Source: a virus
Taxonomy: Duplodnaviria > Caudoviricetes
Virus record (IMG/VR): IMGVR_UViG_3300034106_006066
Coordinates: 1-60,896 of that record
Direction: 5' to 3' (one strand)
DNA: 60,896 nucleotides
Shown here piece after piece: positions 5,583 through 60,896 of the stretch. Position 1 is the stretch's first letter. Every line of letters starts with the position of its first letter. The position numbers were made by a program, and so were the translations under genes. The notes beneath the pieces are model-generated. The model ran no database searches and was not told where the DNA came from. It was given only the letters and a program-made list of their open reading frames with translations.

Positions 5583-5609
5583 TTTCACAGGTAAACAAGG
5601 AGATAGATA

Positions 5610-18299: not shown

Positions 18300-18301
18300 A
18301 A

Positions 18302-20594: not shown

Positions 20595-20607
20595 AATATT
20601 CTCCTTT

Positions 20608-23301: not shown

Positions 23302-24566
23302 TACAGGCTTCCAGTAATAGGATCACTCCAACCCTTACTAATACTATGGGGCCATACTATCCAACTGTGTGGTTTTTTAGGAGTTTGAAATTCTCTCCAA
23401 ACCTTGCAATATCCATCAGGATCATTTTTCATTCTTAAAATTTCATCTTTATCAGCATCTTGTCTATGTATGTCCTGCCCATTTTCGTCTTTAAATGCAA
23501 CAGCCCAAAAATCATAATCGTCAAAAGGAACTTGACTATATTGAATATCAATACAATGTTTAAAAATAGTCATCAAATGAGTTTGAAATTCTTCATAAGT
23601 TAGATTGGAAGTGTCTGGGTCTGGCGGAGGTTTGTGATCTTTTACTCTTTGAGTTATCGCTCGTTTCTTAAAACATAGACCGCTGTATTTTTCATAATCT
23701 TCCAGTGTTCTTACTTTTCCAAATCCATACTGTCCAAAATCTATATCTCTTTTTTCTCCGTCCATTTCGAATAGTTTTCTATTTCTTAAATGACAAGCAT
23801 TGTTTCTGGTTACCCAAATTTTATCATCATCCCATTGTTTTGTTCTTCCTTTTCTGGTATATTCATGCCAACATACAACCTTATGAGGATGGAAGATATC
23901 GTACCCATGAGTATAAGCTCTAACAGCTATACTAATTTCTTCTCCATGAAAATAATAATTAGGATCATGAGGAACTTCTGTACAAAAATCTCCAACACTA
24001 AAAGCAAAGTGAGCACTATAAAATCTTCCTGGTAATGGATCATTAGGATTATCCCATGAATCAAATGTTGCAGGAAGGAAGAATACTGCTCCTTCTGGTA
24101 TGAATCTATCAAAATTCATTTTCCAAGGGGTCATTACTCTGGCTGATGGATCATTCTCAGGATCAAAACTTGGAATATATGATGTAATTAATGGTTTTTT
24201 ATGTCCTTGTTTTTGCAAATCTTTTAACATTGCTATTAAAGTAGAGTCCCAGTTTTTTTCAAATCTATGATGACTATCTAATTGTAGAGTATATTTTTCT
24301 CCTTGATACAAGGATTGCACTTTATTTCTTGCCCAGCATACTCCTTGACTTTCTTCATATGGAATATCTAGTATTCTAAATCTTTCATCATCTTTGTAGT
24401 CATCAAGAGTATCCCAACTATCATCTGGGTGATGTTGCCATGATATTCCTACTCTTAGATTTTCTGGATATTCTGCTTTTTCAAGCATATCCTTAAGTGT
24501 TGGCAGTAATTGGGGATCTCTATACGAAGCTATTTGAACAAATATAGTGTTTTTCTGTTTAGGCAT
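23301..24566 (-). CDS. Skp1/mucin-type polypeptide GlcNAc-transferase (GT60-like)
   Basis: IFVQIASYRDP, GVCWAR, LQLDSHHRF, VPHDP..YFHGEE..AVRAYTHGYD. Confidence 0.85.
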   Translation of the reverse strand: MPKQKNTIFVQIASYRDPQLLPTLKDMLEKAEYPENLRVGISWQHHPDDSWDTLDDYKDDERFRILDIPYEESQGVCWARNKVQSLYQGEKYTLQLDSHHRFEKNWDSTLIAMLKDLQKQGHKKPLITSYIPSFDPENDPSARVMTPWKMNFDRFIPEGAVFFLPATFDSWDNPNDPLPGRFYSAHFAFSVGDFCTEVPHDPNYYFHGEEISIAVRAYTHGYDIFHPHKVVCWHEYTRKGRTKQWDDDKIWVTRNNACHLRNRKLFEMDGEKRDIDFGQYGFGKVRTLEDYEKYSGLCFKKRAITQRVKDHKPPPDPDTSNLTYEEFQTHLMTIFKHCIDIQYSQVPFDDYDFWAVAFKDENGQDIHRQDADKDEILRMKNDPDGYCKVWREFQTPKKPHSWIVWPHSISKGWSDPITGSL

Positions 24567-24568
24567 GA

Positions 24569-41084: not shown

Positions 41085-44000
41085 ATGCCAGACTGCGATA
41101 TTTTATTAAAAATGAATATGGATGGTATTGATGGTTCTTCTTCTTTTATAGATGAATCTTCATATAATAGATCTTTATCTATTATAGGATCATCTCCGAT
41201 AATAAAAACAAATAATAAAAAATTTGGATCAGGAAGTGCATATTTTCCTAACTCCAACCTCTCATCTGCTATAAGAATAAATGATTTAGGAATTATAGCT
41301 AATATTAATGAAGATTTTACTATAGAATTCTGGGTCTATTTTGACTATCCGTATAGTGGTGCGATTCTAGGAAATTGGGCATTTAGTACGGGGTCGAATC
41401 AAGATTGGATGATTAATCTATCGGATGCTTCTGGTTATAATTATATTGATATAGTTTTGGGAACTCAGGCACTTATGACAAATAATACTATAATCAATAT
41501 AAATCAATGGTATCATATTGCATTTGTTCGTAAAAATAATATTTCTAAATTATACGTTAATGGATCATCTGAATTAAATAATAATTCTTTAAATAATCAA
41601 TCATATATTTTAGGTAAAATTAATACTCCTACAGATATAGGATTTGTTAATCCTAATTATTTTAAAGGATATATAGATGAAATAAAAATTATTAAAGGAT
41701 TAGCTTTATATGAATCAGATTTTCAAGTTCCCACAGAAAGAGTACCAGATTGTCAAGCATTAACAATAACTAATACTCCTACTCCAACCAGCACATTAAC
41801 TCCAACGGTAACCACAACTAGTACAGCTACTCCCGCTAGCACAACTACTCCAACTAGCACAGCTACTCCAACTAACAGTGTTACTCCAACAGCAACCTCG
41901 TCAGACATAATCTATGGTTTTCTTTATGGCTGGGGCAGGAATCAATATGGTCAACTTGGAAATGGAACAATTACTAATAAATCTTCTCCAGTTCAGATAG
42001 GAAATGATATTTGGAAACAAGTACATGCTGGAAAAAACTATACAATAGGTATACGATATGATGATACTTTATGGAGCTGGGGTAATAATACAGGCGGTCA
42101 ACTTGGGGATGGAACCACAACCAACAGACTTTTTCCAGTTCAAATAGGAAATGATACTTGGAAAAGCGTATCATCATACAATGATCAGATATTAGCTATT
42201 AAAAACGATAATACTCTTTGGCGATGGGGCCGTTGGACAGATACTAATGCCGTGCCTACTGGATCAACTACTCCAGTTCAAATAGGTAATAATTTTTGGA
42301 AAAAAGTATATGGTAATATGATTATTAAAAACGATGATACTCTTTGGATTTTGAATCTAAAAGATAGTAGTCCTACTCAAAGCAATGACACAGGAGGAAT
42401 GGTATATACGTGGCCTTCTAATGATACTTGGAAAAGCATAGCTTTTGGAAGTTCATATTTAGGAATTAAAAACGATAATACTCTTTGGGCTTGGGGACCT
42501 AATTGGAATGGTCAACTTGGAGATGGATCAACTATTGGTAGGTCTTCACCAGTTCAAATAGGAAATGATACTTGGAAAAGTGTAACTATTGGTTTAGGAT
42601 CATACCCAACAAGTTACGGTATCAAAAGTGATAATACTTTATGGGCTTGGGGTGTTGGTTATTCGTTGGTTCCAGAACAGATAAATAATGATAGTTGGAA
42701 AAGTGTGCATGTAGGATTTGACTATACACTTTTTATTAAAAACGATAATACTCTTTGGGGTTTGGGAAATAATAATCATAATCAATTTGGAGACGGAACA
42801 AATACAAATAGACTATCTATATCTCAAATAGGATCAGATGCTACTTGGCAAACAGTGTCTATAGGATATGAAGAATTTAGTTTTGGAGGTTCAGTATCAG
42901 ATCTAAACTATAATTTAGCTATTAAAACTTCTGCAATAACTCCAACCCCAACTAATACAGTAACTCCAACCAATACAACAACTCCAACTAATACGGTCAC
43001 TACAACTAGTAGTATTACTCCTACGGCCACTCCAACTAATACGACTACTCCAACCAGCACATTAACTCCAACGGTCACCACAACTAGTACGGCTACTCCA
43101 GCTAGCACAACTACTCCAACAAGAACGGCCACTCCAGCTAGTACAACTACTCCAACTAACAGCATTACTTTGACCAGAACACCAAATATAACACCCACCA
43201 ATAGTCAAACTCCAACAAGAACAGCCACCTCAACAGTTACTCCAACCAACACAGTCACTCCAATCACTAGTAAAAATTGCTTATCTTCTATTTTTCCTCA
43301 AAGTTTAGAATTTATAGCTACAAATAATGATATAATTTTTCATTCTCATATATCTGATTGTTATACTAAATGTTTTATAGAATTAGTTTTTAATAATTTA
43401 AATAATAGTCAAATTTTAACTGAAAACTTTATAGTGCCAGATGTTTCTTCTTGTTTAGGTGATTGTTCTGATGATCAAGGATATAAAACTCAAAAAGATT
43501 TTTATACAACATATAGGACTACTAATTTAGTATCTGGACATAAGTATTTATTAACTGCATCTATTAATTGTATGGAATCGATTATTCAAGAGAAAATTTT
43601 AGATTTTAATGATAGAGATATATATGATTGCTGTGAGTTACCAACTCCAGAACCTTCTACTACTAGTACAGCTACACCTACTATTAGTCCAACAAAAAGC
43701 GTTACTCCAACGCCCACAAAAACACCAGTCAATAGCGTTACTCCAACTAGCACCAGCACAACAACGCCCACAAAAACACCAGTCAATAGCGTTACTCCAA
43801 CTAGCACCAGCACAACAACGCCCACAAAAACACCAGTCAATAGCGTTACTCCAACCAGCACAACTACTCCAACAAGAACGGCTACTCCAACAGCTACTCC
43901 TATGCAAACATCCGCATGTTTATTAAATAATGGAGATTTTGAACAAGGGGCTCCTGGAAATGAGGGTGGAGGAGGAACAATTACTTCTTGGACTCAAAAT

Positions 44001-46421
44001 AGTGTAGATATTCATTCGTTGTCTTATGATAACTCCTTATCTCCTTTACAACCTCTAAATAGATGGATTGATCTAAATACTTGCGCACCTGGATATATTC
44101 AACAATCAATTAATACTATTATAGGACAATCTTATTCTATTAGTTTTAAATTAGCAGCCAATAATAAAGACGCAAGAAATATTATTAAAACTTGTAGACT
44201 ATCTATTATAGGATCATCTACTATAACACAAGATTATACTTTCGACCCATCTGCTACAACATACGAATCGTATGAAAGTATGGGATGGATTGATCAAAAT
44301 TATATATTTACGGCTGATAGTTCCACAACAACTATAAAATTTGAAAGTACGTGTCCCGATTGTGGATGTTTTGGACCAGCAATAGATAATGTTTGTTTGA
44401 TTCAGACAAGTGCTAATTATAATAATTGTGCAAATTGGAATGGATCTACCAACGGTAATGTTACCACAGTAGGAAGTAATGGTGCTCCTAGTTATTATGG
44501 GACTTATGATCAAAGCGGAAATGTTTATGAGTGGAATGATCTAGATGGTACTCCTGGCTCGCTTCGTGGGCTTCGGGGCGGCTACTGGGGCAGCGACGCG
44601 CTCCCCTTGTCGTCCTCCTACAGTCTCAGCTTGTGGTACGCCCCGTCGAACTATATCAACGGCGTCGGTTTTCGTCTCGCATGTTCCCTTAACTCTTTAA
44701 ATCTTTCTAACTTTGTAAATATAGGAAATATTAACAATAGTAACGATAGTACTGGTTATGGGAGTGTAAGCTACAATTATCAAATAAATCAATACTTGGT
44801 CACCAACTGTGAGTATGTTGAGTTTTTAAATGCGGTTGCTAAGACGGACACTTATAATCTTCATAATACGATTGATAATGACTATGCTGGCATAACACAA
44901 ACCGGAACCATCGGCAATTTTGTCTACTTTGTCAAGACAAATATGGATAACAAACCCGTAGTTTTTGTAAGCTGGTTTAACGCGGCAAGATATTGCAACT
45001 GGTTACATAATGGTAAACCCTCTGGACCTCAAAATAATAGCACAACCGAAACTGGAGCATACTCTCTTAACGGAGTAACTAGCGGTAACGCTGTAGCAAA
45101 AAACAGCGGAGCTAAATATTATATCCCCACCGAAAACGAATGGTATAAAGCGGCTTTTTATAGTCCCAATAAAAATGGATCACCAGGATATTATCAGTAT
45201 GCTACTCAAAGCGATACTGCTCCAACGTGTGTAACAGCAAGCAGTACTGGAGATGGGCCAGTAAGTTCTAATTACTACGCTTGTCCATTACCGTCGCTTA
45301 GTCCAACACCAACCAGCACAACAACGCCCACAAAAACACCAGCCAATAGTGTTACTCCAACCAGCACAACAACGCCCACAAAAACACCAGCCAATAGTGT
45401 TACTCCAACCAGCACAACAACGCCCACAAAAACACCAGCCAATAGTGTTACCCCAACTAGCACAACTACTCCAACAACAACGGCTACTCCAACAGCTACT
45501 ACAGTTAGTTTAAATAGTGCTAATTTTAATGAGTGCGCCGATTGGAATAGTCAAAATGGTAATGTTACTACAGTAGGAAGTAATGGTGGGCCGAGTTATT
45601 ATGGGACTTATGATCAAAGCGGAAATGTTTATGAGTGGAATGATCTAGCTGGTACTCCTGGCTCGTCTCGTGGGTTTCGGGGCGGCTTCTGCCTCAGCCT
45701 AAACGCGAGTTCCTTGTCATCCTCCACCGGGTTCTCTAACGCCACGTCGTACGCTGGTAATATCGGAGAATTAATCGGTTTGCGTCTATCATCATCATCT
45801 TCTACTCCTAATTCTTCTAATGACTTTGTTACTGTAGCAAATACTGGTAATAGTAATGACTCTACCGGTTATGGAAATATAAACTATACTTATCAAATAG
45901 CTAAATATCCTGTAACTAACTGTGAGTATGCTAAGTTCTTAACTGCGGTAGCAAGTACCGACACATATAATCTTTATAGAGATAGCGAAGCAATAGGAAT
46001 GGATAGTGATGCTAGAAGTGGCATAAATCGAAGCGGCTCCAGCGGTAATTTCACCTACACTGTTAAAACTAACATGGGTAACAAGCCTGTAATTTATATG
46101 ACTTGGTTTAATGCTGCAAGATACTGCAACTGGTTACACAATAATAAGCCTACCGGACCTCAAAACTCCAGCACAACCGAAGACGGAGCATACTCTCTTA
46201 GCGGAAGAATTAGCGGTAACTCTGTAGCAAAAAATAGCGGAGCTAAATATTATATCCCCACCGAGAATGAATGGTATAAAGCAGCTTATTATAGTCCCAA
46301 TAAAAATGGATCACCAGGATATTATACATATGCTACACAAAGTGATAACCCTCCAGTATGTGTAACAGCAGATAGTTTTGGAAACGGGCCAAGAATCTCG
46401 GATTATATCTGTCCAACTTAA
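41085..46421 (+). CDS. giant adhesin/fibre protein: LamG - RCC1 propeller - DUF642-like - two permuted FGE/CLec domains, Thr/Pro linkers
   Basis: DFTIEFW/WYHIAFVR/GYIDE; WG.N..GQLG repeats; NGDFE..IDLN..GPAIDNV; two DQSGNVYEW..GFR + ENEWYKAA units. Confidence 0.88.
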   Translation: MPDCDILLKMNMDGIDGSSSFIDESSYNRSLSIIGSSPIIKTNNKKFGSGSAYFPNSNLSSAIRINDLGIIANINEDFTIEFWVYFDYPYSGAILGNWAFSTGSNQDWMINLSDASGYNYIDIVLGTQALMTNNTIININQWYHIAFVRKNNISKLYVNGSSELNNNSLNNQSYILGKINTPTDIGFVNPNYFKGYIDEIKIIKGLALYESDFQVPTERVPDCQALTITNTPTPTSTLTPTVTTTSTATPASTTTPTSTATPTNSVTPTATSSDIIYGFLYGWGRNQYGQLGNGTITNKSSPVQIGNDIWKQVHAGKNYTIGIRYDDTLWSWGNNTGGQLGDGTTTNRLFPVQIGNDTWKSVSSYNDQILAIKNDNTLWRWGRWTDTNAVPTGSTTPVQIGNNFWKKVYGNMIIKNDDTLWILNLKDSSPTQSNDTGGMVYTWPSNDTWKSIAFGSSYLGIKNDNTLWAWGPNWNGQLGDGSTIGRSSPVQIGNDTWKSVTIGLGSYPTSYGIKSDNTLWAWGVGYSLVPEQINNDSWKSVHVGFDYTLFIKNDNTLWGLGNNNHNQFGDGTNTNRLSISQIGSDATWQTVSIGYEEFSFGGSVSDLNYNLAIKTSAITPTPTNTVTPTNTTTPTNTVTTTSSITPTATPTNTTTPTSTLTPTVTTTSTATPASTTTPTRTATPASTTTPTNSITLTRTPNITPTNSQTPTRTATSTVTPTNTVTPITSKNCLSSIFPQSLEFIATNNDIIFHSHISDCYTKCFIELVFNNLNNSQILTENFIVPDVSSCLGDCSDDQGYKTQKDFYTTYRTTNLVSGHKYLLTASINCMESIIQEKILDFNDRDIYDCCELPTPEPSTTSTATPTISPTKSVTPTPTKTPVNSVTPTSTSTTTPTKTPVNSVTPTSTSTTTPTKTPVNSVTPTSTTTPTRTATPTATPMQTSACLLNNGDFEQGAPGNEGGGGTITSWTQNSVDIHSLSYDNSLSPLQPLNRWIDLNTCAPGYIQQSINTIIGQSYSISFKLAANNKDARNIIKTCRLSIIGSSTITQDYTFDPSATTYESYESMGWIDQNYIFTADSSTTTIKFESTCPDCGCFGPAIDNVCLIQTSANYNNCANWNGSTNGNVTTVGSNGAPSYYGTYDQSGNVYEWNDLDGTPGSLRGLRGGYWGSDALPLSSSYSLSLWYAPSNYINGVGFRLACSLNSLNLSNFVNIGNINNSNDSTGYGSVSYNYQINQYLVTNCEYVEFLNAVAKTDTYNLHNTIDNDYAGITQTGTIGNFVYFVKTNMDNKPVVFVSWFNAARYCNWLHNGKPSGPQNNSTTETGAYSLNGVTSGNAVAKNSGAKYYIPTENEWYKAAFYSPNKNGSPGYYQYATQSDTAPTCVTASSTGDGPVSSNYYACPLPSLSPTPTSTTTPTKTPANSVTPTSTTTPTKTPANSVTPTSTTTPTKTPANSVTPTSTTTPTTTATPTATTVSLNSANFNECADWNSQNGNVTTVGSNGGPSYYGTYDQSGNVYEWNDLAGTPGSSRGFRGGFCLSLNASSLSSSTGFSNATSYAGNIGELIGLRLSSSSSTPNSSNDFVTVANTGNSNDSTGYGNINYTYQIAKYPVTNCEYAKFLTAVASTDTYNLYRDSEAIGMDSDARSGINRSGSSGNFTYTVKTNMGNKPVIYMTWFNAARYCNWLHNNKPTGPQNSSTTEDGAYSLSGRISGNSVAKNSGAKYYIPTENEWYKAAYYSPNKNGSPGYYTYATQSDNPPVCVTADSFGNGPRISDYICPT
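43709..43856 (+). repeat. 54-nt coding tandem repeat, about 2.7 copies
   Basis: aacgcccacaaaaacaccagtcaatagcgttactccaac starts at 43709, 43763, 43817. Confidence 0.9.
44551..44681 (+). repeat. putative DGR variable repeat VR1
   Basis: 83/130 GC and 13 A over 44551-44680 (hand count); encodes RGG.W...SS...PS....GFR with NNC codons at variable positions. Confidence 0.65.
45309..45457 (+). repeat. 48-nt coding tandem repeat, 3 copies
   Basis: ccaaccagcacaacaacgcccacaaaaacaccagccaatagtgttact. Confidence 0.9.
45655..45787 (+). repeat. putative DGR variable repeat VR2
   Basis: 60/100 GC over 45661-45760 (hand count); shares invariant codons with VR1 and differs mostly at positions 1-2 of NNC codons. 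Confidence 0.6.
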
Positions 46422-46462
46422 TAAAAACTTAAATGGTAAATTTTTTGAAAGATTATTAATTT

Positions 46463-47215
46463 ATGCCACTATCATACAGAATACCAAAAGTAGACAATAA
46501 AATAGCACAATGCTGTCCTGCACCTTCTTTACCGCCAAGTTCGGTTACTCCATCTCCTACCAGAACAATAACACCTACTATTACTCCTACAAATACGTTT
46601 ACTCCAACACCAACAGTATCACCTACTAATAGCGTTACTCCAACTATTACGGCAACGCCAACTAATAGCGCTACTCCAACTAATACGGCAACGCCAACCA
46701 ATAGCATTACGCCAACTAATACGGCAACGCCTACCAATAGCGTTACTCCAACCCGCACGGCTAGTGCTACACCAACTAATAGTGTTACTCCAACTCGCAC
46801 GACAACGCCAACTAATACCTTAACGCCAACCAATAGCATTACGCCAACGAATACGACAACCCCAACTAACACAATTACCCCAACCAATACCAAACCCTGT
46901 TCAGTAATTGATTATTGTGGTCAATGCGACGAAAACGGAGACAGTCAAGAAGATAGAACTGGTATTGTTGCTACCTGGACAGTAACTATACCTAACGAGT
47001 ATACTCTTCCTCTACAGATTACATTTAGTGGTGGTGTGAATGATCAATTAATTGTAAATGGAGATGTCGTGGGCGACGGTGGTGACTTTACATATGTTTA
47101 TACAGCAACTCAAAGATCATTTGTGATGAGTATTAATAATACAGGCTTTGGTGCTAATGCTACTTTCCAAATATGTCCAAGATTAGAAATTGGTCCAATA
47201 GATACTGGTCTTTAA
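46463..47215 (+). CDS. Thr/Pro-rich mucin-like protein with C-terminal beta domain
   Basis: (TPTNxx)n stalk. Confidence 0.8.
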
Positions 47216-47334
47216 TACTGGAGTCAGTGATGATTGATCAAATATAGATCTAAGGAATAATAGATGGATTGCAATTCGCCTAGGTGTATCCTAAATTAGG
47301 GCGCATACAGAAATACCTGTAAAATCAAAATAAT

Positions 47335-50300
47335 ATGATCATATATTCTTTAAAAACGTCTTTTACTTATAAAAATAACGAATCATTAGATTTGTTAACT
47401 ATTCCAGAAAATAGTTTTGATAATAATTTATATATTGATTATAATAATTTTATAAATTCAGTATCATTTATTTATGGTGATCAAAAACTTGATGGATCTA
47501 TTCCTGTCTTTTGGACCAGAATAAAAGACAATAATACTCTAGAAAGAGAAGCTGATCCGAATAGTACTCTTCGAAGTTTACAAAGTAATCATCATTATTA
47601 TATAGTATTATTAGATAATTCTAAATTACCAGTTAAAATTCCAACCCCAATAGATAGTTCTAAATTCTTAGGAAAAAATAATTATTCTAATATAAAATGT
47701 GACGATATAGATTGTGATAATCAATTAACAATAAACTCTACCGCTCATAGATCATTATTATTGAATAATGATACCGGACACTCAGCAGATATTCATATAG
47801 AGCTATCTGGCTTAAAGCCCAATTCATCATATCTCTATACTATAGAGCCTATAATTTCTAATTGGCCATATAAATTAAGTCAATACTCAGGAGAAATCTT
47901 AAGAAATAGTCCATTAACAAATTTGGGACTAGTAAATTCCGCCATAGATACCAAATTTATATATCTGCCAGATATATCTAGTTCTGGATCTGGCCCCTTA
48001 ATAGATATTACCAATACTGATTATAAAAATAATATTTTTTCATTACTCTCTTTAAAAATTTTTAATGAATCTAATAGTTTGGTTGCTAAAGACACCATAA
48101 GTATTCTGTGCGACAACTGCATAACATCATCTATTACTGATAAATGCGCCAGAATAGATATTTTAAGTAAAAATATTGTATTATCTAGTGGAGATTCGTC
48201 TGTCAAACTAATAGGTAGCTGTTATAATTTAAATCCTAATAGTAAATATATATATAATTTTTATAGTAATAATTCTAATTGGCCGTGCTTTATTTCTCCA
48301 GTTTCTGGAATAGTATCTATTGATTCACTATATGCTCAAGATACTATTATTTATGGTTCTGGAAATATAGAGGCAGTATTACAATTTAATAATAATCTAC
48401 AAGAAACTTCTAATTTAGCATATAATATACCAGAATATACTAGCGAAGTTTTTTTTGATAAAAATATATATACTAATTTAGGCTTATATATTAGTTCAGA
48501 ATCTGAAGATTGTGATACTGCTTTCGACAATACGAATATATTGTGTAATTCATGTTTATCTAGTAAAAGCTTAGGTAATTGTTTAAATTCAATCAGTATA
48601 AATATTAATAATTCTAATTTACAATATCCTATTCTTTCTTCAGTTTCGAGGCCAGGAGCAGAAATATTAGTACCAGAAGATTGTTGTAATAAAACTCAAA
48701 CTTTAACAACTACTATTAGTGGATTATGTGCTAATCATCAATATACTTATGAGTGGACTAGCTATCCAGATATTAGAATTATACCTACCAGCGGATATTT
48801 AAGTATAAATGATGATTCAACAATTTTACAAAGCTTATATAATTTAAACAACAATCAAATTAGTAGTATTAAATTAAAAATTTTTGATGGAGACAAATAT
48901 GTTGAAGATAATGTATTGATAAGATGTAATAATGGTTGTTTTAAACCAAGTCCTACACCTACTCCAACTAATACCACTACCCCAACAGTTACTCCTACAA
49001 ATACTATTACTCGCACAGCTACTCCAACTAATACCGTTACTCGCACAACTACTCCAACTAATACCGTTACTCGCACAACTACTCCAACTAATACCGTTAC
49101 TCGCACAGCTACTCCAACAAATACGGTGACTCCAACAAATACAGCTACTCCATATGCAACCCCAACCACAACTGTGGCTATAACACCCACACCAACACTC
49201 ACTGACCTTTATTATTCTTTATATCCTATCTTGTCGGCTCCTAACGTAGATTGGACAGTATTATCTTTATCTAATAATGGAGAAAAAATAGTTGGAGCAT
49301 CTTCTACTAGACAAAATCCAGGACAATCTCCTGCTATTTACCAAGATAAAATATATATTAGTTCGAATAGCGGTTCTACTTTTAATGATAGTACACCTCT
49401 CGGTTTAGATTTTTATAACGTAGATATTGATTCCTCAGAAGATGGAACAAAATTAATAGTTAGTGTTATAAATGGTGTTTATGTTTCTGCTAATGGCGGA
49501 TTGAATTGGACATATATTAATATTCCTAAAAATCCAAATGATGTAAATAATAGTTATTTTGAGGGAGTGGCAATATCCAATGATGGTACAAAAATGATTG
49601 CGGCCCGTGCAAGCGGTATGATTTATAGTTCCTCTAATGGGGGAGTTTCCTGGACATCAGGCTCCATTCTTCCAGAAGACTTACTAATTGGAGGCAATAT
49701 TAGAAGTTGGAATTCGGTAGTAATGTCTGGAGATGGCGAAACATTTATAGCGTCTGATATTTTCGGTGTTTATATTTCTAAAGACTATGGAGTTACTTGG
49801 GATAAATCTTTCTATAATTCAGGAATACTGGCATGCTCAAATAACGGTAACGAGATATTCTGTTTAAGAAATGATTACTTTTCATCACCAAATACTCCAG
49901 CTGGTTATAAATCTATTAATGGAGGTGCGACATGGACTCTATTAAATATTAGAGACAACAATGGTGATTTGTTTCCGCTAGTTTCGGGACTCTTTAAAAG
50001 CGTCTCCTGTTCTGCTGATGGTTCAAAAATTATTGTTGCCGACTATGGTATGAATAATTATCTAGGAGTTACTAGTAACGGTAATCTATATTTATCTGTT
50101 GATTATGGAACAACATGGAGAAAACTAAATTTTAATCAACCTTATGGTGGAATCTTTAATCCAATTTTAAATTGGCATACTGTAGATATTTCCTCTGATG
50201 GTTCAAAAATTATTGCTTCCTGCAAGGCGACATCAGTACAAAACTGGCCAGCGACTTATGAACAAACTAATTTATATTATGATCAAAAAATATTTTATGC

Positions 50301-51288
50301 TTTAATTCCATCAAATACTAATACTCTGACACCTACGCCAACTAATAGTACTACTCCAACTCCAACAAAAACTAGCACAACACCTACCCCAACAACCAGC
50401 ATAACACCTACTCCAACAAAAACTACAGGATTAATATATTCCAATATGCTATTTAATAATAGCTCATGGAACTCTATAGACGATGCTTACTGGAGAAATA
50501 CTTTAACTAATGCGGCAAATAGATGGTCAACATATTTAAGATATGGTGAAGAGGCTATTAATTACATAAAATCTTTATATCCTAATTGGTCAGGATTAGA
50601 ATTAAAGATAACTCCAGAAACGTTTAGCATATATAATGATTCTAATAGTACGACCATAGCATCATGCGGGCCTGTTAATTTTATTACTGGAGCGAATACA
50701 AATACTAGTAATATTCCATTATTTAATTCTATTAATTTTCAATTACATATTAATGAATATTATCGTAATAGTTACTCTAATAATGATTGGTTAAATATAT
50801 TAACTCATGAACTAGGACACGCATTAGGAATAGGTATATACTGGGATCCATTCTTTTCAAGCTATGGAGCAGTTGTTCCAGCGGATAATTTTATTAATAA
50901 TGAAAACTATAATATAACACAACAAGGTTATAATAATATAACCTCTTTAAATAGGAGTAAAACTCCAATAGAAGATTCAGGATCGGCTGGTACAGTTAAT
51001 TCTCACTGGGAAAATAATTATAGAGATACAAATTATTCTGGAGGGAATGGGGTAGCTTATCCTGGATTATCTAATGAATTAATGGTTGGTACTATTAGTC
51101 CAGGAAATAGTAGAGTATTATCATTATTAAGTATAAAAAATTTGGTTGGATATGGATACGAAGAGAAAAATCCAAATACTTCAGAAGGAATTCCAACTAT
51201 TATAGATTCACCAAGCATGTCTACACAAAATATACATCTTGGATGCTCTTGTTTAAAAGATATCATAAAGAATATGAAACCCGTATAA
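47335..51288 (+). CDS. large adhesin: repeated Ig-like modules, TP stalk, BNR/Asp-box propeller, leishmanolysin (M8)-like metalloprotease
   Basis: S.DYG.TW/S.NGG..W repeats; HELGHALG...SHWE...NELM. Confidence 0.85.
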   Translation: MIIYSLKTSFTYKNNESLDLLTIPENSFDNNLYIDYNNFINSVSFIYGDQKLDGSIPVFWTRIKDNNTLEREADPNSTLRSLQSNHHYYIVLLDNSKLPVKIPTPIDSSKFLGKNNYSNIKCDDIDCDNQLTINSTAHRSLLLNNDTGHSADIHIELSGLKPNSSYLYTIEPIISNWPYKLSQYSGEILRNSPLTNLGLVNSAIDTKFIYLPDISSSGSGPLIDITNTDYKNNIFSLLSLKIFNESNSLVAKDTISILCDNCITSSITDKCARIDILSKNIVLSSGDSSVKLIGSCYNLNPNSKYIYNFYSNNSNWPCFISPVSGIVSIDSLYAQDTIIYGSGNIEAVLQFNNNLQETSNLAYNIPEYTSEVFFDKNIYTNLGLYISSESEDCDTAFDNTNILCNSCLSSKSLGNCLNSISININNSNLQYPILSSVSRPGAEILVPEDCCNKTQTLTTTISGLCANHQYTYEWTSYPDIRIIPTSGYLSINDDSTILQSLYNLNNNQISSIKLKIFDGDKYVEDNVLIRCNNGCFKPSPTPTPTNTTTPTVTPTNTITRTATPTNTVTRTTTPTNTVTRTTTPTNTVTRTATPTNTVTPTNTATPYATPTTTVAITPTPTLTDLYYSLYPILSAPNVDWTVLSLSNNGEKIVGASSTRQNPGQSPAIYQDKIYISSNSGSTFNDSTPLGLDFYNVDIDSSEDGTKLIVSVINGVYVSANGGLNWTYINIPKNPNDVNNSYFEGVAISNDGTKMIAARASGMIYSSSNGGVSWTSGSILPEDLLIGGNIRSWNSVVMSGDGETFIASDIFGVYISKDYGVTWDKSFYNSGILACSNNGNEIFCLRNDYFSSPNTPAGYKSINGGATWTLLNIRDNNGDLFPLVSGLFKSVSCSADGSKIIVADYGMNNYLGVTSNGNLYLSVDYGTTWRKLNFNQPYGGIFNPILNWHTVDISSDGSKIIASCKATSVQNWPATYEQTNLYYDQKIFYALIPSNTNTLTPTPTNSTTPTPTKTSTTPTPTTSITPTPTKTTGLIYSNMLFNNSSWNSIDDAYWRNTLTNAANRWSTYLRYGEEAINYIKSLYPNWSGLELKITPETFSIYNDSNSTTIASCGPVNFITGANTNTSNIPLFNSINFQLHINEYYRNSYSNNDWLNILTHELGHALGIGIYWDPFFSSYGAVVPADNFINNENYNITQQGYNNITSLNRSKTPIEDSGSAGTVNSHWENNYRDTNYSGGNGVAYPGLSNELMVGTISPGNSRVLSLLSIKNLVGYGYEEKNPNTSEGIPTIIDSPSMSTQNIHLGCSCLKDIIKNMKPV
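49001..49120 (+). repeat. 30-nt coding tandem repeat
   Basis: actccaactaataccgttactcgcaca(a/g)ct units. Confidence 0.85.
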
Positions 51289-51413
51289 AAAATTAAAATA
51301 TGACTTATTTTCTAATATACCTATAATTATTTATAAGGTGTATTCAGATTATATCTTAGTACAACAGGATATTAAATATTGGACCAAATCTTTAATATAT
51401 GAACAAATAAATT

Positions 51414-54400
51414 ATGAGTAATAGTGCCAATTATAAAAACTCAGCAATATGGAATAATGTTGTAGGAAATATTACAACAAACGGAACTAATGGAATTTCT
51501 AGTTTCTATAATACTAGAGATCAAAGCGGAAACGTTTGGGAATGGATAGAAAATTCAAACAGTAATGATAATTTATTAAAGAACAGAAGAGGAGGGGCGT
51601 GGAACAGCTCATCCGAAAAGTCTATTTCTGTATCAGGACTAGCTACAGGATCATTAGCAACAAAAAGTCATAATACTGGTTTTAGAATTGGCCAATCTTT
51701 CCAAGAGAATAATTATAGTTTTGCTCACTTTGTTGATATTATTAATCCTAATAATCCACCAGATACTGGAAATAATACAAACTTAGGATCAGTGTCATAT
51801 TCTTTTAAAATTATGCAGAATACTGTTACTAATTCTCAGTACGCATATTTTCTTAATGTTGTTGACCCTAGCGGCCTAAATAGTCATAATTTATATTCTA
51901 CTTTAATGACTAAAGATAATGATTTAAATAATCCTCGTGGAGGCATAAATTATTCTAGTTCTAGAAATATAGGATCAAAATATACAGTAAAACCTTATTT
52001 TGAGAATAAACCAGTTAATTATGTTAGCTGGACCAACGCCGCCATGCTATGCAATTGGCTCCATAATGGAGCATCATCCAATAGTAGTGTAGCAACAGGG
52101 GTTTATGACCTAAGTAACCCGAGTACTACTTCAAGATCAATAGATGCTAAATATTTTATTCCTAATGATAATGAATGGTACAAAGCAGCTTTTTATTCAG
52201 ATTCTATTTCTGGTTACTATTTATATGCGACTCAAAGCAATCAGGCGCCTTGCTCCATAGGATCAAATAGTTGTGGTAGTATTAATTCTATTAATGGAGA
52301 TGGTTCAGTAATTACTAATGCTCCAACTCCATCTATTACTCCATCTGTTACTTTTAGTCCAACTCCAACACTATCTATTAGTCCTACTAAAAGCTTAACT
52401 CCAACAATTACTTCAACCAAAACATTAACACCAACTAAAACACCTACTAATACTCCAACTATATCAATTAGTCCTACTGTTACTATCAGTCCATTTACAA
52501 CTTCTACTCCAACAGTTTCTGTTACTAATAGCAATACTCCGACTTTAACAGTAACACGGACTATAACGCCGACCAATACTGCTACTACAACAAGAACACC
52601 ATCTCGCACACCAACAAAAACACCTACACCAACAAAAACAAATACCCCCACAATAACACCTACAACTTCTATTAGTCCGTCAATTACTCCTAGTATCAGC
52701 TTAAGTGCAAGTATAGAGCCTCCTAGTAGACCAGATATTCTAGATAGAAGACACAATATCAAACAGTATATTGGCAAAAATCCTTTAAATCTTATATCGG
52801 CACCAACACCACGACTAATCAATGATACATTAGTTAAAGATTGGTATAATTTTATTTCAAATATAGAACTAATTTATCAAAAAGATATTAATAATAATGG
52901 ATTATATGATAATAGTAGTTTATATTTTAATACCATAGCTAGTGGTGACTCCATAGTCCCAGATTCATCATCAACACTACAACAATTAGAAACGAATCAG
53001 ACATATTATTTTATACTAAAATCATCAGCAAACATTCCTGTCAAAATTCCTTTTGATAATCATAATTATAATTCTATACTAGCTTCCTCTGGTATTATTG
53101 ATTCTATCAGGAAATTAGACCTATCACCAGATTCTTTTATTGGTAAAATCAATTCTAATAATGAATTAAATCACTTAACTATTATAGATGCTTTGTATAA
53201 AGATATAGATAATCTTAAAAAAGATAAAAAATATCCAGATAAAATACAACAAGCAGAAAATATATTAGATGTTGTATATACTGATTATATTAATAACAAT
53301 CCTTGCTCATCATTAGTAGAATATGAAGAGAATTGTGATTCTCATTATAATTTTAATCCATCTATTAATTTACCTTCTGGATTATCAAATAATTTAACTA
53401 ATATTAATATTGAAAATATAGACACTTATATTGCTAGAATTAATATTCCAATTAACAATTTACCAGAATTAACAAACAATGAAGAAATTTTGTATGAATT
53501 TAATTTTATAGATACTGATGGTAAAACATACCAAATATACCCATATAGCGGATCTATTCTACCCAATAATAATTTATCAAATATTTCTGCGATAGTAAAT
53601 ATGTTCCCTTCGTCTACTCCAACAGTTACTCCAACTATAACTCCAACAAATACTGTTACTCCTACAAGCACTGTTACTCCAACCAATAGTATTACTCCTA
53701 CCAATAGCATTACTCCTACTTTAACTCCAACAACAACAATTACCCCAACAAGAACAACCACTCCAACAAATACCATTACTCCGACTAATACTATTACGCC
53801 GACTAATACTATTACTCCGACTGTTACTCCAACCAACACCATTACTCCAACCAATACTATCACTCCAACTATCACTCCAACTACTACTATAACTCCTAGT
53901 ACTACCAGACCATCTTATAATAGTGCAAACTATAATGAATCAGCCAACTGGAATGGGTCTTCTGGAGGTAATGTAACGACCGTAGGTAGCAATGGAGGAT
54001 CATCTTATTATGGAACTTATGATCAAAGCGGAAATGTTAAAGAATGGAACGATCTAAATAATAGTATTACTGTAAATAAAGGTTTAAGGGGCGGAGGGTG
54101 GAACGATACTTTAGCAACACTATCGTCTTCTTCCGATTCATTATCTTTTATTCCAGAATATGCTGATGATAGTATAGGATTTCGTATTTGTGCGATGAAT
54201 AATACTTTTGATTATAATTTTGTAAGTGTTGCGGATACTAATAATATTAATAGCTCTAATTCATATGGAAATGTAAATTATATTTATCAAATTGGAAAAT
54301 ATCCAGTTACTAATTGTGAATATGCTCAATTTTTAAACTCAGTTGCATCAGTAGATAAGTATAATTTATATAATGATAATATGGATAGCGCTAGATGCGG

Positions 54401-57400
54401 CATAGTTAAAATACCAGGCTATAGTACTACAAATAATTCAATGCTAAATATTGATTTTGTTCCTGTTCTTAATTCAGGAAATGCCCCCAATCCATTGATT
54501 AGCCCAGATCTGTCTACTGTTAGTAGTAGCGGTTCTGTTAATTATAATTTTCATATAGGAAAGTATGAAATAACTAATGCTCAATACTCTTCGTTCCTTA
54601 ATAGTGTTGCTAAAACAGATACTAATAATTTATATAGAATACTTATGGAGAATGAAATAGTTCGTTCTGGTTCTAATGGAAATTATAGCTATAGCACAAC
54701 AGAAGGAAATGAAAATAAACCAGTTTGTTTTGTTTCGCAATTTGATATTTTTAGATTTGCTAATTGGCTACATAATGGTGGTCCGTCAGGTCTTCAAAAT
54801 GCTTCAACAACAGAAGATGGGGCATATGATATGTCATTGTCTAGACCATTGCGCAAATCTGGAGCAAAATTTTGGATTCCTAGTATAGATGAATGGTATA
54901 AATCTGCTTTCTATAGTCAAGAACTAAATAATGGGTCCGGAGGTTATTATCTGTATCCAACAAGCAGTAATACTTTATCTCCAAGTAATCCTCCCGGAGG
55001 ATCTGATTCAGCTAATTTTAATACTGTTGTTGGAGAAAAAACAGTTGTTGGAAGCTATATTAATGCAACTTCTCCATGTGGTGCATATGATATGGCAGGA
55101 AATATTTCAGAAAGATTGGATACTTTTGTTAGTTTTAATGATCTATACTTACATGCGGTAGGAAATTGGAATTATTCAGGTGAATTTACAAATATTCCTG
55201 GAGAATTATTTAATTCATCATCATCAGAACACACCTTTGCTACTGCTGGACTTACATCAGAAAACGAGAGAGTAGGATTTAGAGTAGCTGGATTTTTCCC
55301 AACCAACTCGTATTCTGTAAAACCCGATTGGAATAATAAGCCAATAGTTTTTGTTAATTGGTTTGATGCTGCCAGATATTGTAATTGGCTACATAACAAC
55401 AAAATCAGAGGACCACAAGATATTACTACAACCGAAGACGGAGCTTACACTCTGAATGGTATTGTTAGTGGTAATGGAGTAATAAAAAATACAAATGCTA
55501 AATATTGGATTCCTAGTGAGAATGAGTGGTATAAAGCAGCATATTATAGTCCTAATAAAAATAATACTGGTAATGTTGGATATTACCTTTATGCTACTCA
55601 AAGTGATGAACCGTTGTACTTTGTTACTGCTGATAGTGCAGGAAATGGCATATTAAACGAACAACTCGCTCAAGCTAGCGATTATTTCTGTGGAGAATTA
55701 CCAACTCCTACTCCAACAAAAACAACCACTCCAACTATTAGTACTACCCCCACAAATACAATTACGCCAACCAATAGCGAGACTCCAACAGCTACTCCAA
55801 CAAATACCTCTACCCCAACAAATACTCCTACTCCAACTAGTACTCTAACTCCATTTTTAAGCCCATCGATTACTCCAACAAGTACTCCAACTAGTAGTGA
55901 GACGCCTACTGCCACACCTACAAATAGTATTACTCCTACTAATACTCTTACTCCAACTAATACCATAACCCCAACACAAACTATTACTCCTACTTCTACC
56001 GATATAGCTATTGGAAATAGAGCTAATTATAACGGATTAGCTAATTGGAACGGATCTACCGGAGGAAATCTTACTTCAGTAGGAAGTAATGGAGGACCAA
56101 GTTATTATGGAACATATGATCAAAGCGGATTAGTTTATGAATGGAATGATTTAAACAATATTGATTCCCCCAATAGAGGGAAAAGAGGGGGCTGGTCTGG
56201 AAATAGCGCATTAGCATTATCTTCTGCTTTCAGAGCTGAGGATCCGATAGCCTCAATAAGATCATCTGTAGGATTTCGTTTGTCTTCTAGTACTAATCCA
56301 TTAAATCTTGATATGTCATTAATTACAGATCCTGGTAATACTTTTGATACTGGTGGAACTAATTATGGTTCTGTAAACTACACATACTATATAGGAAAAT
56401 ATATTATTACTAATTGTGAATATGTAGATTTTCTAAATAGTGTTGATCCTCAAGGAATTAATCCGCAAAATATATATAATACTTCTATGACAACAAGTAT
56501 TCATGGAGGTATTAATTTTAATAGTGGAGCAAATAATGGTAATAAATATACTATAAAAACTAATTGGGGAGATAAACCAGTAGTTTTTGTAAACTGGTTT
56601 AGCTGCTCAAGATACTGCAACTGGTTGCACAACGGTAGGTTTAAATATCTCACCTCAGATAGTTCTGCTAATGCTCCTCAAAATAATGGTGCATATAATA
56701 TAGGGATATCAACAACAGGCAATGCTGTATCAAAAACTAATACAGCATTATATTATATACCTACAGAAAATGAATGGTATAAAGCTGCATATTATAAAGG
56801 AAATGGAACCAACGCTGGATATTGGAGATATGCCACTCGATCCAACGATATTCCATTAGCAATAACTGCTGATAGTTTTGGTGCTGGAACATTAAATGGA
56901 ACTTCAGTAATAACTAATTATAGTTGTCCTCCTTCTCCAAGTTCTATGCCAACACCCACTCCTACTACTACTTCCACTCCAACAAATACTGTTACTCCAA
57001 CCTTAACTATTACCCCAACCAGAACAGCCTCTCCAACAGTTACTCCAACCAGAACAGCCTCTCCAACAGTTACTCCAACCAGAACAGCCTCTCCAACAGT
57101 TACTCCAACCAGAACAGCTACTCCAACAGTTACTCCAACAAGAACATCCACTCCAACAATTACTCCAACCAGAACGGCTACACAAACAACTACTCCAACA
57201 AACACCTCTACTCCAACAAACACCTCTACTCCAACAAGAAGTATAACTCCTACGCGAACACTAACGCCAACTAATACGGTTACTCCGACCCAAACCAAAC
57301 TAATACTACCCTTGACTGCCGGTTCTAATACAGCTAATTTTATTGGATTATGGGGAAACACAACATTAAGTAGTACTTTCAATAGTAATGACAACTACAG

Positions 57401-60400
57401 CAACATTAGAGCTGTAGCAGCAGGATATGGTCGTACCACTCCTGGTCCGATGTTTTCTACAGCTAGAGGCAGTATCAATATTAGATTTATTGATCAGAAT
57501 AATCAGCCTGTTTCTGTTACCGAATTCTCATTAAGCAATATCATACTATATTATGAATTTAGACCAGTATCTTTAAGTGGAGCGACTTTAACTGGTAGTG
57601 GTTCTAGCTATATATTAACTTTACCATCGAATACTAATTCTTTAAATGGAGCCTATCAATTAAAAATTACAGGATTTGACCCAGAAGGTTTATATTCAAT
57701 GATTTGTTGGCAAAAATGGATTCTTGGATCTGAAAACTTAAGATATATTTGGTATAGTACTAATTGGAATGAATCATTAACTAATAATGTTACAACTGTG
57801 GGTAGTAATGGTGGTCCTAGTGCATATGGTACTTATGACCAAAGCGGGAATGTAGAGGAATGGACAGATAACTTTGGTCTTGCTGAAGTTAGTAAAAAAT
57901 TACGAGGAGGATCATATAGATCAGTTATTCATGAAATTAGTAAAATTTATAGATCCGTAGATACAATTCCATCATATAAAGATCCCAGATATGGCTTTAG
58001 AATATGTAGTTTTAATAATTCTAATTCAATACCAAATTTAGTACAAGTAGTTAATTCTAATAATACTCAAGATACAACAGGATTTGGATCTGTTCCTTAT
58101 GCTTATTTTATAAGTAAATATCCTATTACTAATTGTGAATATGTAGAATTTTTGAATAGTATTGATCCTCAAGGTTTGAATCCTCAAGGGATTAGTCCAG
58201 ATGCTGCTGCTAGAAGAGACATAATATCGGGTATACTATTTGATAGTACCTCCTCCAACGGAAATAAGTATTCTACCAAACCTAATATGAGTAATAAGCC
58301 AGTAGTATATATAAATTGGTTTAATGCTGCGAGATATTGCAATTGGTTACATAATAATAGACCAAAACTATTAACAACAAACCTATCAGCAACGGCTCCA
58401 CAAAATGTTGGTGCTTATAATTTAGGATCAACAACAACAGGTAGTACTGTAGCCAAAGAGCCCAATGCTAAGTATCATATTCCAACAGAAAATGAATGGT
58501 ATAAAGCAGCATTTTATAAGAGCAATTCTACCAATGCTGGATATTGGAATTATGCTACTCAACAAGATACTATCCAGTATGTTAGTAGTGATCAATTTGG
58601 AAATGGTATTAATTTTAATCTAAACAATCATCCCGTTGCTAGAAGTAGTGATTTCAATTGTATTCAATATGTTACTCCTACTCCTACTATTACTCCCACC
58701 AAAACCTCAACTCCTACTGCTACTCCAACAAGTACTATGGGTCCAAGAACACCAACTCCAACATCGTCAATTCCATGTGACTTTACATTACAAAAATGGT
58801 TACCACTGATCGACTCACAATTAGATATAGCACCTGCATGGACGTGTCTCGCCTCTAATGAAGATGCAACAAAATTAGCTGCTATTTCCTACAACAATTT
58901 CAATGTTGGGGGCTTTGGTATAGAATACAAGGTTTATGTTAGTAATAATAGTGGAAAAACCTGGACATTAAGTTTTGCGTCTAATGACCCTTTAAATAGT
59001 ATAGCAAGCGATAGCACAGGAAATAAACTAATACTAACAGCAGACAATGGTTCAGGTATCGGAACATTACATACCAGTACTGATGGTGGTCAAACTTGGA
59101 TACCAAGAACTTCTGCTGGCATTAAACCCTGGCAAAAAGTAATTAGTAGTAATAATGGAAATAATTTAGTTGCAATAGAGTTGACTACTTCTATATATAC
59201 TAGTAGCGATAGCGGAATAAGTTGGACAAAAATTGATAACGATCTATTATCAATGTCGGGGTGGTATGATATTGCTATGAATAGCGACGGATCTCAATTA
59301 ATAGGTATATTACCTACTACTACTAGTGGATTGATAGCAAATCTATATGTTAGTAGTGATTATGGAAATAATTGGACAATTATTAATAGTGCTGGGACTA
59401 GATCATGGAGAAGAGTATTACAAAATAATACTGGTTCAATAATAGTAGCTTTAGCAACACGAACTGCTAATGCTAGTCCAGACGAGATACACGATATGTT
59501 TGTGAGTACGAACGGTGGCGTTTCTTGGACTCAAAGAGGATCTGCTGCTTCCAAAGCATGGTGGGATATCTCTATGAACAAAAATGGTAATATTATATTA
59601 GGAATTAATCATGCTAGTACTTCAAGTAATAGCACGCCTGGAGATTTAAGCTCTATTTACCTTAGTAGAGATACTGGTATTTCTTGGAGCGAATTAGCTT
59701 ATAATAATGGTTCGGTTGGGAATGGGATGACTAAAGTTTGGAGTAAAATATCAACCGACTACTCAGGAAATAAATTCATAGCTTCCGCATCTAATAATAG
59801 TGTCTATACAATGGATTGTAGCATTCCTTCAAAAGGAATTCTGTTTGACAGCTCTTCCTGGATAAACAGGTCGGATGTTCCATCTTTATATCAATCTTTA
59901 TTAAATACTGCTTCTAACAGATGGTCTAATTATATCAAATTAAGTGACATTACTTTAAATCAACATCCAGGACTCATTAGTTCACAAGGATTACAACTAA
60001 AATCATTCTCCTTATATAACGATGGATCAGACTGGTCAGCTGCTAGATGTGAACCAAATAATGATTATACTGGATTTAATTTGTCTATTAATACATATTA
60101 TAATCCAGGGCTTACCAACTTATGGAGTAATATTATTGTACATGCATTGGGTCATGGTCTAGGTATCGGAACCAATTGGACTGTTACAGGAGGTTTCGTT
60201 GGAGGCGTATCTGATACTTCTCTTAGACTAGATGGAATATCATATCCTATGACTTTGGCCGCTTGGAGACTTATTTCCGCAAACCGACTCATGCCATATA
60301 CGCCGGTACTTGAAGAAAATCAAATTGGAGCAGGAACACACTGGACAGATACAGTTATAAATGAGATTATGAGAAGACCTATAACGGAATCCAGAAATAT

Positions 60401-60602
60401 AACAATATTAAGTATTAAAAACCTATTAGACATAAAGCCTCTCGGATTTGAGAGATATGTGGAAATCAAACCAGGAAATTTTGAAAAATGGATTTCACGA
60501 GAACAAGATTCCTTTTTTACTCCACAGATACAACAAAATATAGAAGAAAATATTCTTTATTGCGGAACATGTAATCATATTAATTCACTTAAAACTAACT
60601 AA
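51414..60602 (+). CDS. 3062-aa giant adhesin: four permuted FGE/CLec domains, one nested canonical FGE domain, BNR propeller, inactive M8-like domain
   Basis: Four DQSG..EW..GFR + EWYKAA units, one DMAGNISE unit, Asp-box repeats, HALGH. Confidence 0.88.
57014..57170 (+). repeat. 30-nt coding tandem repeat ([10 protein letters not shown])
   Basis: agaacagcctctccaacagttactccaacc x3 plus degenerate copies. Confidence 0.9.
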
Positions 60603-60607
60603 TTTAA

Positions 60608-60896
60608 ATGTCCTATAAAATATATAACAATAACAGCACTTTTTATATCAGAAAAGTTAATGAAGAATTTTTTCTGAACAATAGTGATATTATAACTCCA
60701 ACACCATCTGTAACGCCTACAAAAACAATTACTAGTACTCCAACAGCTAGTACAACAGTTACTTCGACTCCAACCTCTACAGTTACTAGAACGGTCACCT
60801 CAACAAGTACTCCAACGCCAACACAAACCTCTAATCCGCTACCAGGCCCAACTCCAACGCCAACCTCTACAGTTACTAGAACGGTCACCTCAACAA
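60608..60896 (+). CDS. Thr/Pro-rich protein (3'-truncated by window)
   Basis: ATG 60608 MSYKIYNNNSTFYIRK...TPTPSVTPT, open to end of window; not in ORF track. Confidence 0.8.
   Translation, partial: MSYKIYNNNSTFYIRKVNEEFFLNNSDIITPTPSVTPTKTITSTPTASTTVTSTPTSTVTRTVTSTSTPTPTQTSNPLPGPTPTPTSTVTRTVTST

Follow-up and report, generated by a model that had tools for sequence, protein, structure and literature searches.

Evidence for six circularly permuted FGE-sulfatase/C-type-lectin-like domains in two giant proteins of a phage record

Two giant open reading frames (ORFs), gpA and gpD, in a virus record of 60,896 bases (IMG/VR record IMGVR_UViG_3300034106_006066; "the window" refers to this whole stretch of DNA) carry six units of the formylglycine-generating enzyme (FGE)-sulfatase family, Pfam PF03781. 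In all six, the C-terminal part of the canonical domain (C-half) comes before the N-terminal part (N-half), as a reading of the sequence alone had proposed, and this order is borne out by the family profile, by models of the separate halves and by alignments to solved structures in the Protein Data Bank (PDB). We consider it very probable that each of the six units is a self-contained, circularly permuted FGE-sulfatase/C-type-lectin-like domain. Such a chain would start in the loop that leads into the canonical last third, run through GNVxEW...RGG...GFR, cross a short junction between the old termini, and then continue into the canonical first two thirds. The two proteins, their five simple units and their threonine/proline (Thr/Pro)-rich linkers are as follows; unit 4 has a more elaborate layout and is listed separately.

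41085-46421 (+): gpA, 1778 amino acids; Pfam matches to Laminin_G_3, RCC1 repeats, DUF642 and FGE-sulfatase, with permuted units 1 and 2 last
44409-44681 (+): unit 1 C-half, the last third of a canonical FGE domain (GNVxEW ... RGG ... GFR)
44709-45260 (+): unit 1 N-half, with FVxV, KYxVTN, NWLHN and EWYKAA, after a 9-residue junction
45285-45524 (+): Thr/Pro-rich linker between units 1 and 2
45516-45794 (+): unit 2 C-half, from Pfam and half-model
45822-46391 (+): unit 2 N-half, at the gpA C-terminus, from Pfam and half-model
51414-60602 (+): gpD, 3062 amino acids; units 3-6, Sortilin/BNR repeats and an HxxxH-type C-terminal region
51423-51692 (+): unit 3 C-half, gpD residues 4-93, from half-model and motifs
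51726-52280 (+): unit 3 N-half, from Pfam and half-model
56022-56288 (+): unit 5 C-half, from half-model
56313-56891 (+): unit 5 N-half, from Pfam and half-model
57756-58010 (+): unit 6 C-half, from Pfam and half-model
58035-58610 (+): unit 6 N-half, from Pfam and half-model
52305-52682 (after unit 3), 53607-53918, 55701-56006, 56901-57302 and 58674-58775 (+): Thr/Pro-rich linkers in gpD

The PF03781 profile matches the window 11 times. At the protein level, it matches gpD in six stretches and scores 100.4 bits against gpA and 221.3 bits against gpD (cut-off 23.3). Taken singly, all six units pass the family profile, with E values from 9e-10 to 3.5e-35. The split hits in swapped order that the sequence-only reading had predicted are found for units 1, 2, 4 and 6, in which profile positions from about 145 to 254 come first and positions 35-140 second, while units 3 and 5 are matched in their N-halves only.

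44412-44681 (+): unit 1, profile 149-254
44772-45176 (+): unit 1, profile 35-129
45504-45638 (+): unit 2, profile 145-188
45888-46304 (+): unit 2, profile 36-128
51798-52202 (+): unit 3, profile 35-126
53925-54188 (+): unit 4 outer domain, profile 149-253
55299-55559 (+): unit 4 outer domain, profile 78-128
56382-56807 (+): unit 5, profile 36-128
57768-58004 (+): unit 6, profile 158-253
58098-58565 (+): unit 6, profile 35-140

None of the six units follows the collinear N-to-C order; the sole collinear domain is a copy nested within unit 4. The C-halves of units 3 and 5 contain the same motifs as the others and match a C-half hidden Markov model at E 2.5e-26 and 1.7e-31, scores that are not independent for these two units because the model derives from an alignment, A1, that includes them. 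The junction of the old termini measures 8-11 residues in the five simple units, in good agreement with the linker of about 8-12 amino acids estimated at the outset. When the profile of A1 (39 units) is compared with the PDB, every one of the 25 hits at E ≤ 0.01 is an FGE-family chain, and in the three alignments shown, profile positions 26-89 fall on the C-terminal part of the chain and positions 120-260 on its N-terminal part. A direct sequence comparison of unit 1 with TvpA (Treponema denticola variable protein 1) likewise places residues 5-97 on TvpA 187-292 and residues 184-205 on TvpA 93-114. Together, the Pfam and solved-structure searches and the 8-11-residue junctions confirm the swapped order. 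Two of the originally proposed boundaries need correction. Unit 4 (53921-55690), read as one long unit, is instead a permuted domain into which a canonical-order FGE domain is inserted. Unit 6, said to begin at 57330, starts about 420 nucleotides later, near 57756, after some 140 residues devoid of a Pfam match: neither 57330-57743 (138 residues) nor 52701-53900 (400 residues, between units 3 and 4) in gpD has a Pfam match at E ≤ 0.1.

Structure prediction is consistent with this arrangement. Modeled alone with 39 aligned sequences, unit 1 gives a confident, compact single-unit fold, with a mean predicted local distance difference test score (pLDDT) of 92.1 and a predicted template modeling score (pTM) of 0.92 in AlphaFold2; the five models range from 89 to 92 in mean pLDDT. 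An exhaustive, sequential structure search of this model among 48,161 representative chains returned 17 chains at Z ≥ 2, the top 15 of which are FGE-family or C-type-lectin-fold proteins. The matches form two classes, one in which model residues from 99 or 102 to 293 superimpose on the first two thirds of the chain, and one in which residues 1-103 superimpose on its last part.

Model 102-281: CarF 2-184 (5aoh), Z 6.4, 148 residues aligned, root-mean-square deviation (rmsd) 3.8; the best structural match
Model 99-293: TvpA 55-248, Z 5.5, 151 aligned, rmsd 3.9
Model from about 99 or 102 to 293: SUMF2 27-221, Z 4.8, 130 aligned, rmsd 3.5
Model 2-98: EgtB-IV 334-442, Z 5.0, 87 aligned, rmsd 3.0
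Model 5-103: Mtd 266-380, Z 3.0, 85 aligned, rmsd 3.8
Model about 1-103: TaqVP, match ending at 381, Z 2.9, 97 aligned, rmsd 3.9

Foldseek, which is also sequential, finds no match to the unit 1 model at E ≤ 0.001 in the PDB, where FGE-family chains hold the top ranks at E 0.3-0.9 over about 100-115 columns, and none at E ≤ 0.001 in a viral structure library; the TM-score reached by sequential alignment is roughly 0.2. For a predicted model, such partial, two-piece matches are the behavior that a permutation predicts, and they illustrate how poorly visible the permuted clade is to sequential searches.

The same order of halves would be read from the sequence if canonical domains were formed by the N-half of each unit and the C-half of the next, with the Thr/Pro stretch as a long internal loop. 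In canonical relatives the C-half follows the N-half after 0-50 residues, so the Thr/Pro linker does sit at the place of that loop. Pairing of this kind is nonetheless extremely unlikely in our judgment, because it would leave four orphan halves, namely the first C-half and the last N-half of both gpA and gpD, and would have to bridge more than 540 residues between units 3 and 4. gpA ends 9 residues past the unit 2 N-half, and an in-frame stop lies one codon upstream of the gpD ATG; thus, gpD begins with a C-half, and an upstream N-half is impossible. Furthermore, among 48 viral loci many ORFs with stops on both sides consist of exactly one C-half then one N-half and nothing more (for example, L009, L020 and L024, of 364, 383 and 360 amino acids), a database protein of 333 amino acids (P0146) contains one unit, and unit 1 on its own is predicted to fold with the high pTM given above. 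The closed single-unit ORFs and the start of gpD therefore contradict the pairing across adjacent units that the sequence-only reading had itself named as the counter-case. Alternatively, the units could fold only as domain-swapped oligomers in which the C-half of one chain completes the N-half of another, polymerizing the giant proteins. Co-variation would be the same for intra-chain and inter-chain contacts, and segment swapping within the C-type lectin-like superfamily is described, for the collagen IV NC1 domain, in PMC3779223. On the other hand, the 8-11-residue junction joins strands that are neighbors in the canonical fold, which makes closure within the chain the simplest outcome, and all five AlphaFold2 models are confident as monomers (mean pLDDT 89-92). 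We regard obligate swapping as very unlikely. The reading in which each unit closes on itself as a permuted domain is thus supported by the Pfam order, the AlphaFold2 models, the closed ORFs, the structure search and the gpD start.

The swapped order extends well beyond this record. A search with unit 1 among 1.84 billion representative proteins yields 8,907 matches at E ≤ 0.001 and 2,360 at E ≤ 1e-30. We classified architectures by hits covering at least 70% of half-models built from the unit alignment. By this measure, 98 database proteins are C-then-N only, 75 are N-then-C only and 63 are other; ORFs of the 48 viral loci are C-then-N only in 47 cases and other in 5, and at a looser 50% cut the four deviating viral ORFs are each cut by the end of the locus. 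Among bacterial loci, sampled as the best 80 of at least 595 confirmed loci and drawn mostly from Planctomycetota and Verrucomicrobiota bins, 76 ORFs are N-then-C, 16 are other (single halves, NNC, NNN), and 0 of 92 are C-then-N. The survey of distribution called for at the start thus finds the swapped order in viral ORFs and not in this bacterial sample. Junctions in the 48 viral loci and in most database members are 5-19 residues long. A tblastn search with unit 1 against 50,697 GenBank phage records gives no match at E ≤ 1e-5. The closest sequence relatives are Planctomycetota and Verrucomicrobiota proteins, secreted or of the PEP-CTERM surface type, that contain canonical PF03781 domains, single or in tandem. 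These relatives share subfamily motifs with the units and reach 38-54% identity in the best segment, yet unlike the units they follow the N-then-C order in 76 of 76 classifiable ORFs from the best 80 bacterial loci.

To place the permuted and canonical domains in one tree, each half was aligned to its half-model and the halves were concatenated in one common order. From an input of 471 domains, those with more than 25% gaps or at least 85% identical to a kept domain were dropped; architectures classed as other were left out except for five nested or neighboring domains added by hand, and the final set comprises 418 non-redundant domains (180 permuted and 238 canonical). By parsimony, this tree needs just 6 changes of domain order; 200 label shuffles average 135.4 changes and never fall below 120. 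A single split (support 0.943) sets 229 canonical domains, and no permuted one, apart from all 180 permuted domains and the other 9 canonical ones, and the five simple window units group with 175 other permuted units. It is likely that the permutation arose once.

The relatives also suggest a route. A canonical domain, of the kind seen in surface proteins of Planctomycetota and Verrucomicrobiota, would have been duplicated in tandem, probably once, and its outer halves would then have been lost, leaving a C-half, a junction and an N-half. Canonical tandem proteins with a C-to-N junction of 5-13 residues (P0046, P0050, P0060, P0090, P0141, L049, L050 and L084) are the intermediates that this duplication-then-truncation model requires, so the short junction is already present in tandem forms of the relatives. 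Circular permutation by duplication is known from textbook cases in DNA methyltransferases, swaposin and carbohydrate-binding modules, the last of which figures as a reference title in PMC4444583. The proposed route of tandem duplication and loss of outer halves is the same as in those cases, and here tandem intermediates are extant in relatives; what differs is the fold, the large clade in virus-derived DNA and the presence of nested domains. In the published texts we searched, supplements aside, no FGE or C-type-lectin-like domain is described as permuted. The permutation discussed in a jumbo-phage paper (PMC7824862) concerns methylases.

Cysteines further distinguish the permuted clade, whose extra Cys are largely missing from the bacterial relatives. 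A Cys occupies the RYC position in 83% of permuted and 22% of canonical domains, one lies near the new N-terminus in 29% and 1%, respectively, and one occurs within 20 residues after the N-half in 100 of 151 permuted domains compared with 36 of 235 canonical ones. In unit numbering, clade-specific Cys fall at residues 12 and 296, close to the new chain ends, and at 201 and 279. These positions suggest that the Cys may staple the new termini as disulfides.

Unit 4 appears to record a second event, in which a canonical-order FGE domain entered the N-half of a permuted one at a beta-hairpin tip. Its parts are as follows.

53922-54191 (+): unit 4 outer C-half, Pfam profile 149-253 and half-model
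54216-54413 (+): unit 4 outer N-half, first part up to the hairpin, half-model positions 1-67
54456-55289 (+): inserted canonical-order FGE domain (N-half then C-half), in the hairpin of the unit 4 N-half
55299-55652 (+): unit 4 outer N-half, second part, half-model positions 57-185 and Pfam profile 78-128

Within the insert, 54543-55289 matches PF03781 positions 35-254 collinearly (E 2.7e-20). Half-model hits along gpD run in the corresponding order: a C-half at residues 837-926, N-half positions 1-67 at 935-1000, a second N-half (positions 2-172) at 1015-1188, a second C-half at 1199-1292, and N-half positions 57-185 at 1282-1413. By these boundaries, the extra 280 or so residues of unit 4 form one gap relative to the simple units. 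The insertion point is the hairpin formed by two strands, GI(T/N) and (F/T)YxVK, which correspond to residues 167-170 and 177-180 of the unit 1 model. An AlphaFold2 model of the 596 residues of unit 4 was read as pLDDT per 10-residue block, using an alignment from which canonical bacterial domains were omitted because their inclusion misplaced the N-halves of permuted units in a preview. The outer permuted domain (residues 1-160 and 471-570) has blocks of 85-98, except for 64 at residues 11-20, and the inserted N-half has blocks of 58-89.

The nested layout is conserved in P0031 and P0157 (65% identity, 97% coverage) and in P0044, and in the tree the inserted domains fall among canonical domains on a long branch. 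The same hairpin accommodates other cargo: a complete permuted unit in P0021, inserts of 287-305 residues in P0012 and P0164, and one of about 125 residues in P0040, which makes N-half half-model positions from about 57 to 83 a recurrent insertion site. A scan of viral contigs for the nested unit 4 gave 7 pattern matches, 0 of which were confirmed; the nested form occurs instead in protein databases.

In regard to function, the catalytic, copper-binding Cys pair of FGE lies between RGG and GFR, a position visible in the human SUMF1 alignment. That pair is absent from all six units, whose RGG-GFR segment contains no Cys in five cases and one in unit 2. The same segment, residues 51-90 of unit 1, has the highest column entropy of the family (2.4-3.2 bits) and corresponds structurally to the variable-region end of proteins targeted by diversity-generating retroelements (DGRs). 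The 60.9-kb record has no match to RVT_1 (PF00078), and self-BLAST of the window finds no repeat of the template/variable type; between units, DNA identity is 65-85% in the best matches, and the mismatches are of every kind rather than limited to adenines. Considering the missing Cys pair, the high variability and the lack of both RVT_1 and a template repeat in the window, we think the units are probably non-enzymatic binding heads diversified by ordinary evolution. Their ligands are most likely glycans or surface proteins, with the RGG-GFR segment as the putative binding surface.

Each of the known systems of this fold shares some of these features. TvpA (2y3c), Mtd (1yu0) and TaqVP (5vf4) are non-enzymatic binding domains of the same fold family, and their variable, ligand-contacting segment precedes the final GFR-type strand, as it does in the units. 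In the units, by comparison, the two parts are swapped, the variable segment is moved away from the protein C-terminus, several copies per protein are carried on Thr/Pro linkers, and the window shows none of the retroelement, template repeat or adenine-specific variation of a DGR. Human FGE and its paralogue (SUMF1 and SUMF2; 1y1e, 1y4j) and CarF (5aoh) have the fold and Pfam family in common with the units, and SUMF2 is the best sequence match of the unit profile (E 2.3e-10). The units differ in having the swapped order, in lacking the catalytic Cys pair and in occurring in a multi-copy display architecture instead of a single-domain enzyme.

It could be argued that the units are DGR targets like TvpA or Mtd, with the retroelement beyond the window, since the record is estimated to be 44% complete and the most variable segment coincides with the DGR variable-region position. 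However, the variable region of a DGR target is normally found where the gene ends (3'), adjoining the template, and here the unit segments have no near-identical repeat and differ by mismatches of every kind, in a record without an RVT_1 match; the chance that a DGR acts on them is, in our estimate, minimal. Of the proposal that permutation moves a DGR-type variable segment to the domain interior, one part therefore stands, namely that the equivalent segment, at about 51-90, is off the chain ends and the most variable of all, while its DGR-type nature does not. A catalytic role might equally be taken from database names, since source pipelines, where they name relatives at all, annotate them either as "SUMF1/EgtB/PvdO family nonheme iron enzyme" or as [quoted passage not shown]. 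Against activity of the FGE, EgtB or PvdO type stand the 0 or 1 Cys in the catalytic-Cys segment of each of the six units, the variability of this segment, higher than anywhere else in the family, and the presence of as many as four copies in one protein, carried on linkers next to lectin-type modules. We find it hardly conceivable that the units are active enzymes.

As binding heads, the units would be displayed multivalently on Thr/Pro-rich stalks beside LamG, DUF642, RCC1 and BNR/sortilin propellers, and their carriers could be phage fibers or other extracellular phage proteins. The suggestion that permutation serves to reposition the termini so that heads can be strung along stalks is weakened by canonical-order tandem domains in bacteria, which are spaced by 5 to more than 2000 residues. 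We give little credence, at present, to a fuller scenario in which the units are a phage-specific receptor-binding module with a single origin from a bacterial surface protein through duplication and truncation, the hairpin is a nesting hotspot and stalked units are two-headed.

Several points weigh against these interpretations. Co-variation is the same for a fold closed within one chain and for a domain-swapped oligomer, so that AlphaFold2 is unable to tell the two apart, and the structure matches, being sequential, come in two pieces with no single full-length superposition. In the unit 4 model, residues 346-456 of the inner domain, where one or two homologues align, have pLDDT below 50, so that the inserted domain is not resolved and its fold is assigned solely from the Pfam match. 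The clade on the permuted side of the tree includes the 9 canonical domains with weak support (0.53), and the tree has a midpoint root; for these reasons a single permutation event is no more than likely. The half-models used for the tree came from permuted units. Because the bacterial scan covered the best 80 of at least 595 loci, absence of the swapped order from bacteria is not proven, and one of the 98 permuted database proteins comes under a metagenome bin named "bacterium". Finally, none of 22 other ORFs scanned in the window matches a tail, baseplate or fiber family in PHROGs and Pfam scans, and a location of the giant proteins in the virion has no support from gene context here.

The FGE/C-type-lectin fold is a scaffold shared by DGRs, type IX secretion rings and sulfatase maturation. 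A large, naturally rewired clade means that this fold tolerates a new start point, and the permuted clade and its extant tandem intermediates offer a clean natural case of permutation by duplication. The labeling of relatives as enzymes by annotation pipelines is almost certainly wrong. If the units are indeed receptor-binding heads, they could serve as markers of host-recognition proteins in uncultured large phages. The nested copy indicates that a permuted scaffold is able to carry inserted domains, which is relevant to the engineering of display scaffolds.

The remainder of the window provides the setting. Homologues of rIIA (E 1.2e-111) and rIIB (E 1.1e-74) adjoin at 2910-6470 (+), and a clamp-loader homologue lies at 9078-9962; these three identify the record, whose G+C content is 24-40%, as a fragment of a large T4-like phage. 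The scanned neighbor genes are accessory in kind: a sigma-factor-like protein, a ClpP-like protease, ferritin, PAP2, a methyltransferase, an IMPDH/GMP reductase and glycosyltransferases. From 41 kb to its end, the window holds five plus-strand ORFs in which Thr/Pro linkers are abundant, gpA and gpD being accompanied by the following three.

46463-47215 (+): Thr/Pro-linker ORF, a 250-amino-acid protein without a Pfam match
47335-51288 (+): gpC, with Sortilin/BNR repeats (Pfam)
60608-60895 (+): last Thr/Pro-linker ORF, which runs past the window end

C-terminal to the Sortilin/BNR repeats, both gpC (50806-50835) and gpD (60141-60170) contain a zinc-protease motif of the HELGHxLGIG type. The gpD motif has Ala in place of Glu (HALGH), which suggests an inactive copy. 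gpC shows a weak Pfam match to Leishmanolysin (M8), at E 0.02, which does not reach the cut-off.

At 23301-24566 (-), the window encodes a protein matching PF11397, "Glycosyltransferase (GlcNAc)", with an E value of 2.1e-73. PF11397 has polypeptide O-GlcNAc transferases among its members; glycosylation of the Thr/Pro linkers is therefore conceivable, and the enzyme may convert the Thr/Pro stalks into mucin-like rods. It lies within a block of sugar-handling genes at 17364-26233 (-) that also contains a fused HAD hydrolase and nucleotidyl transferase and an HtrL/YibB-like protein. A further ORF, at 13407-14408 (+), is a full-length match to Volactin, an actin-like family in Pfam (E 2.3e-61, profile 1-320 of 321).

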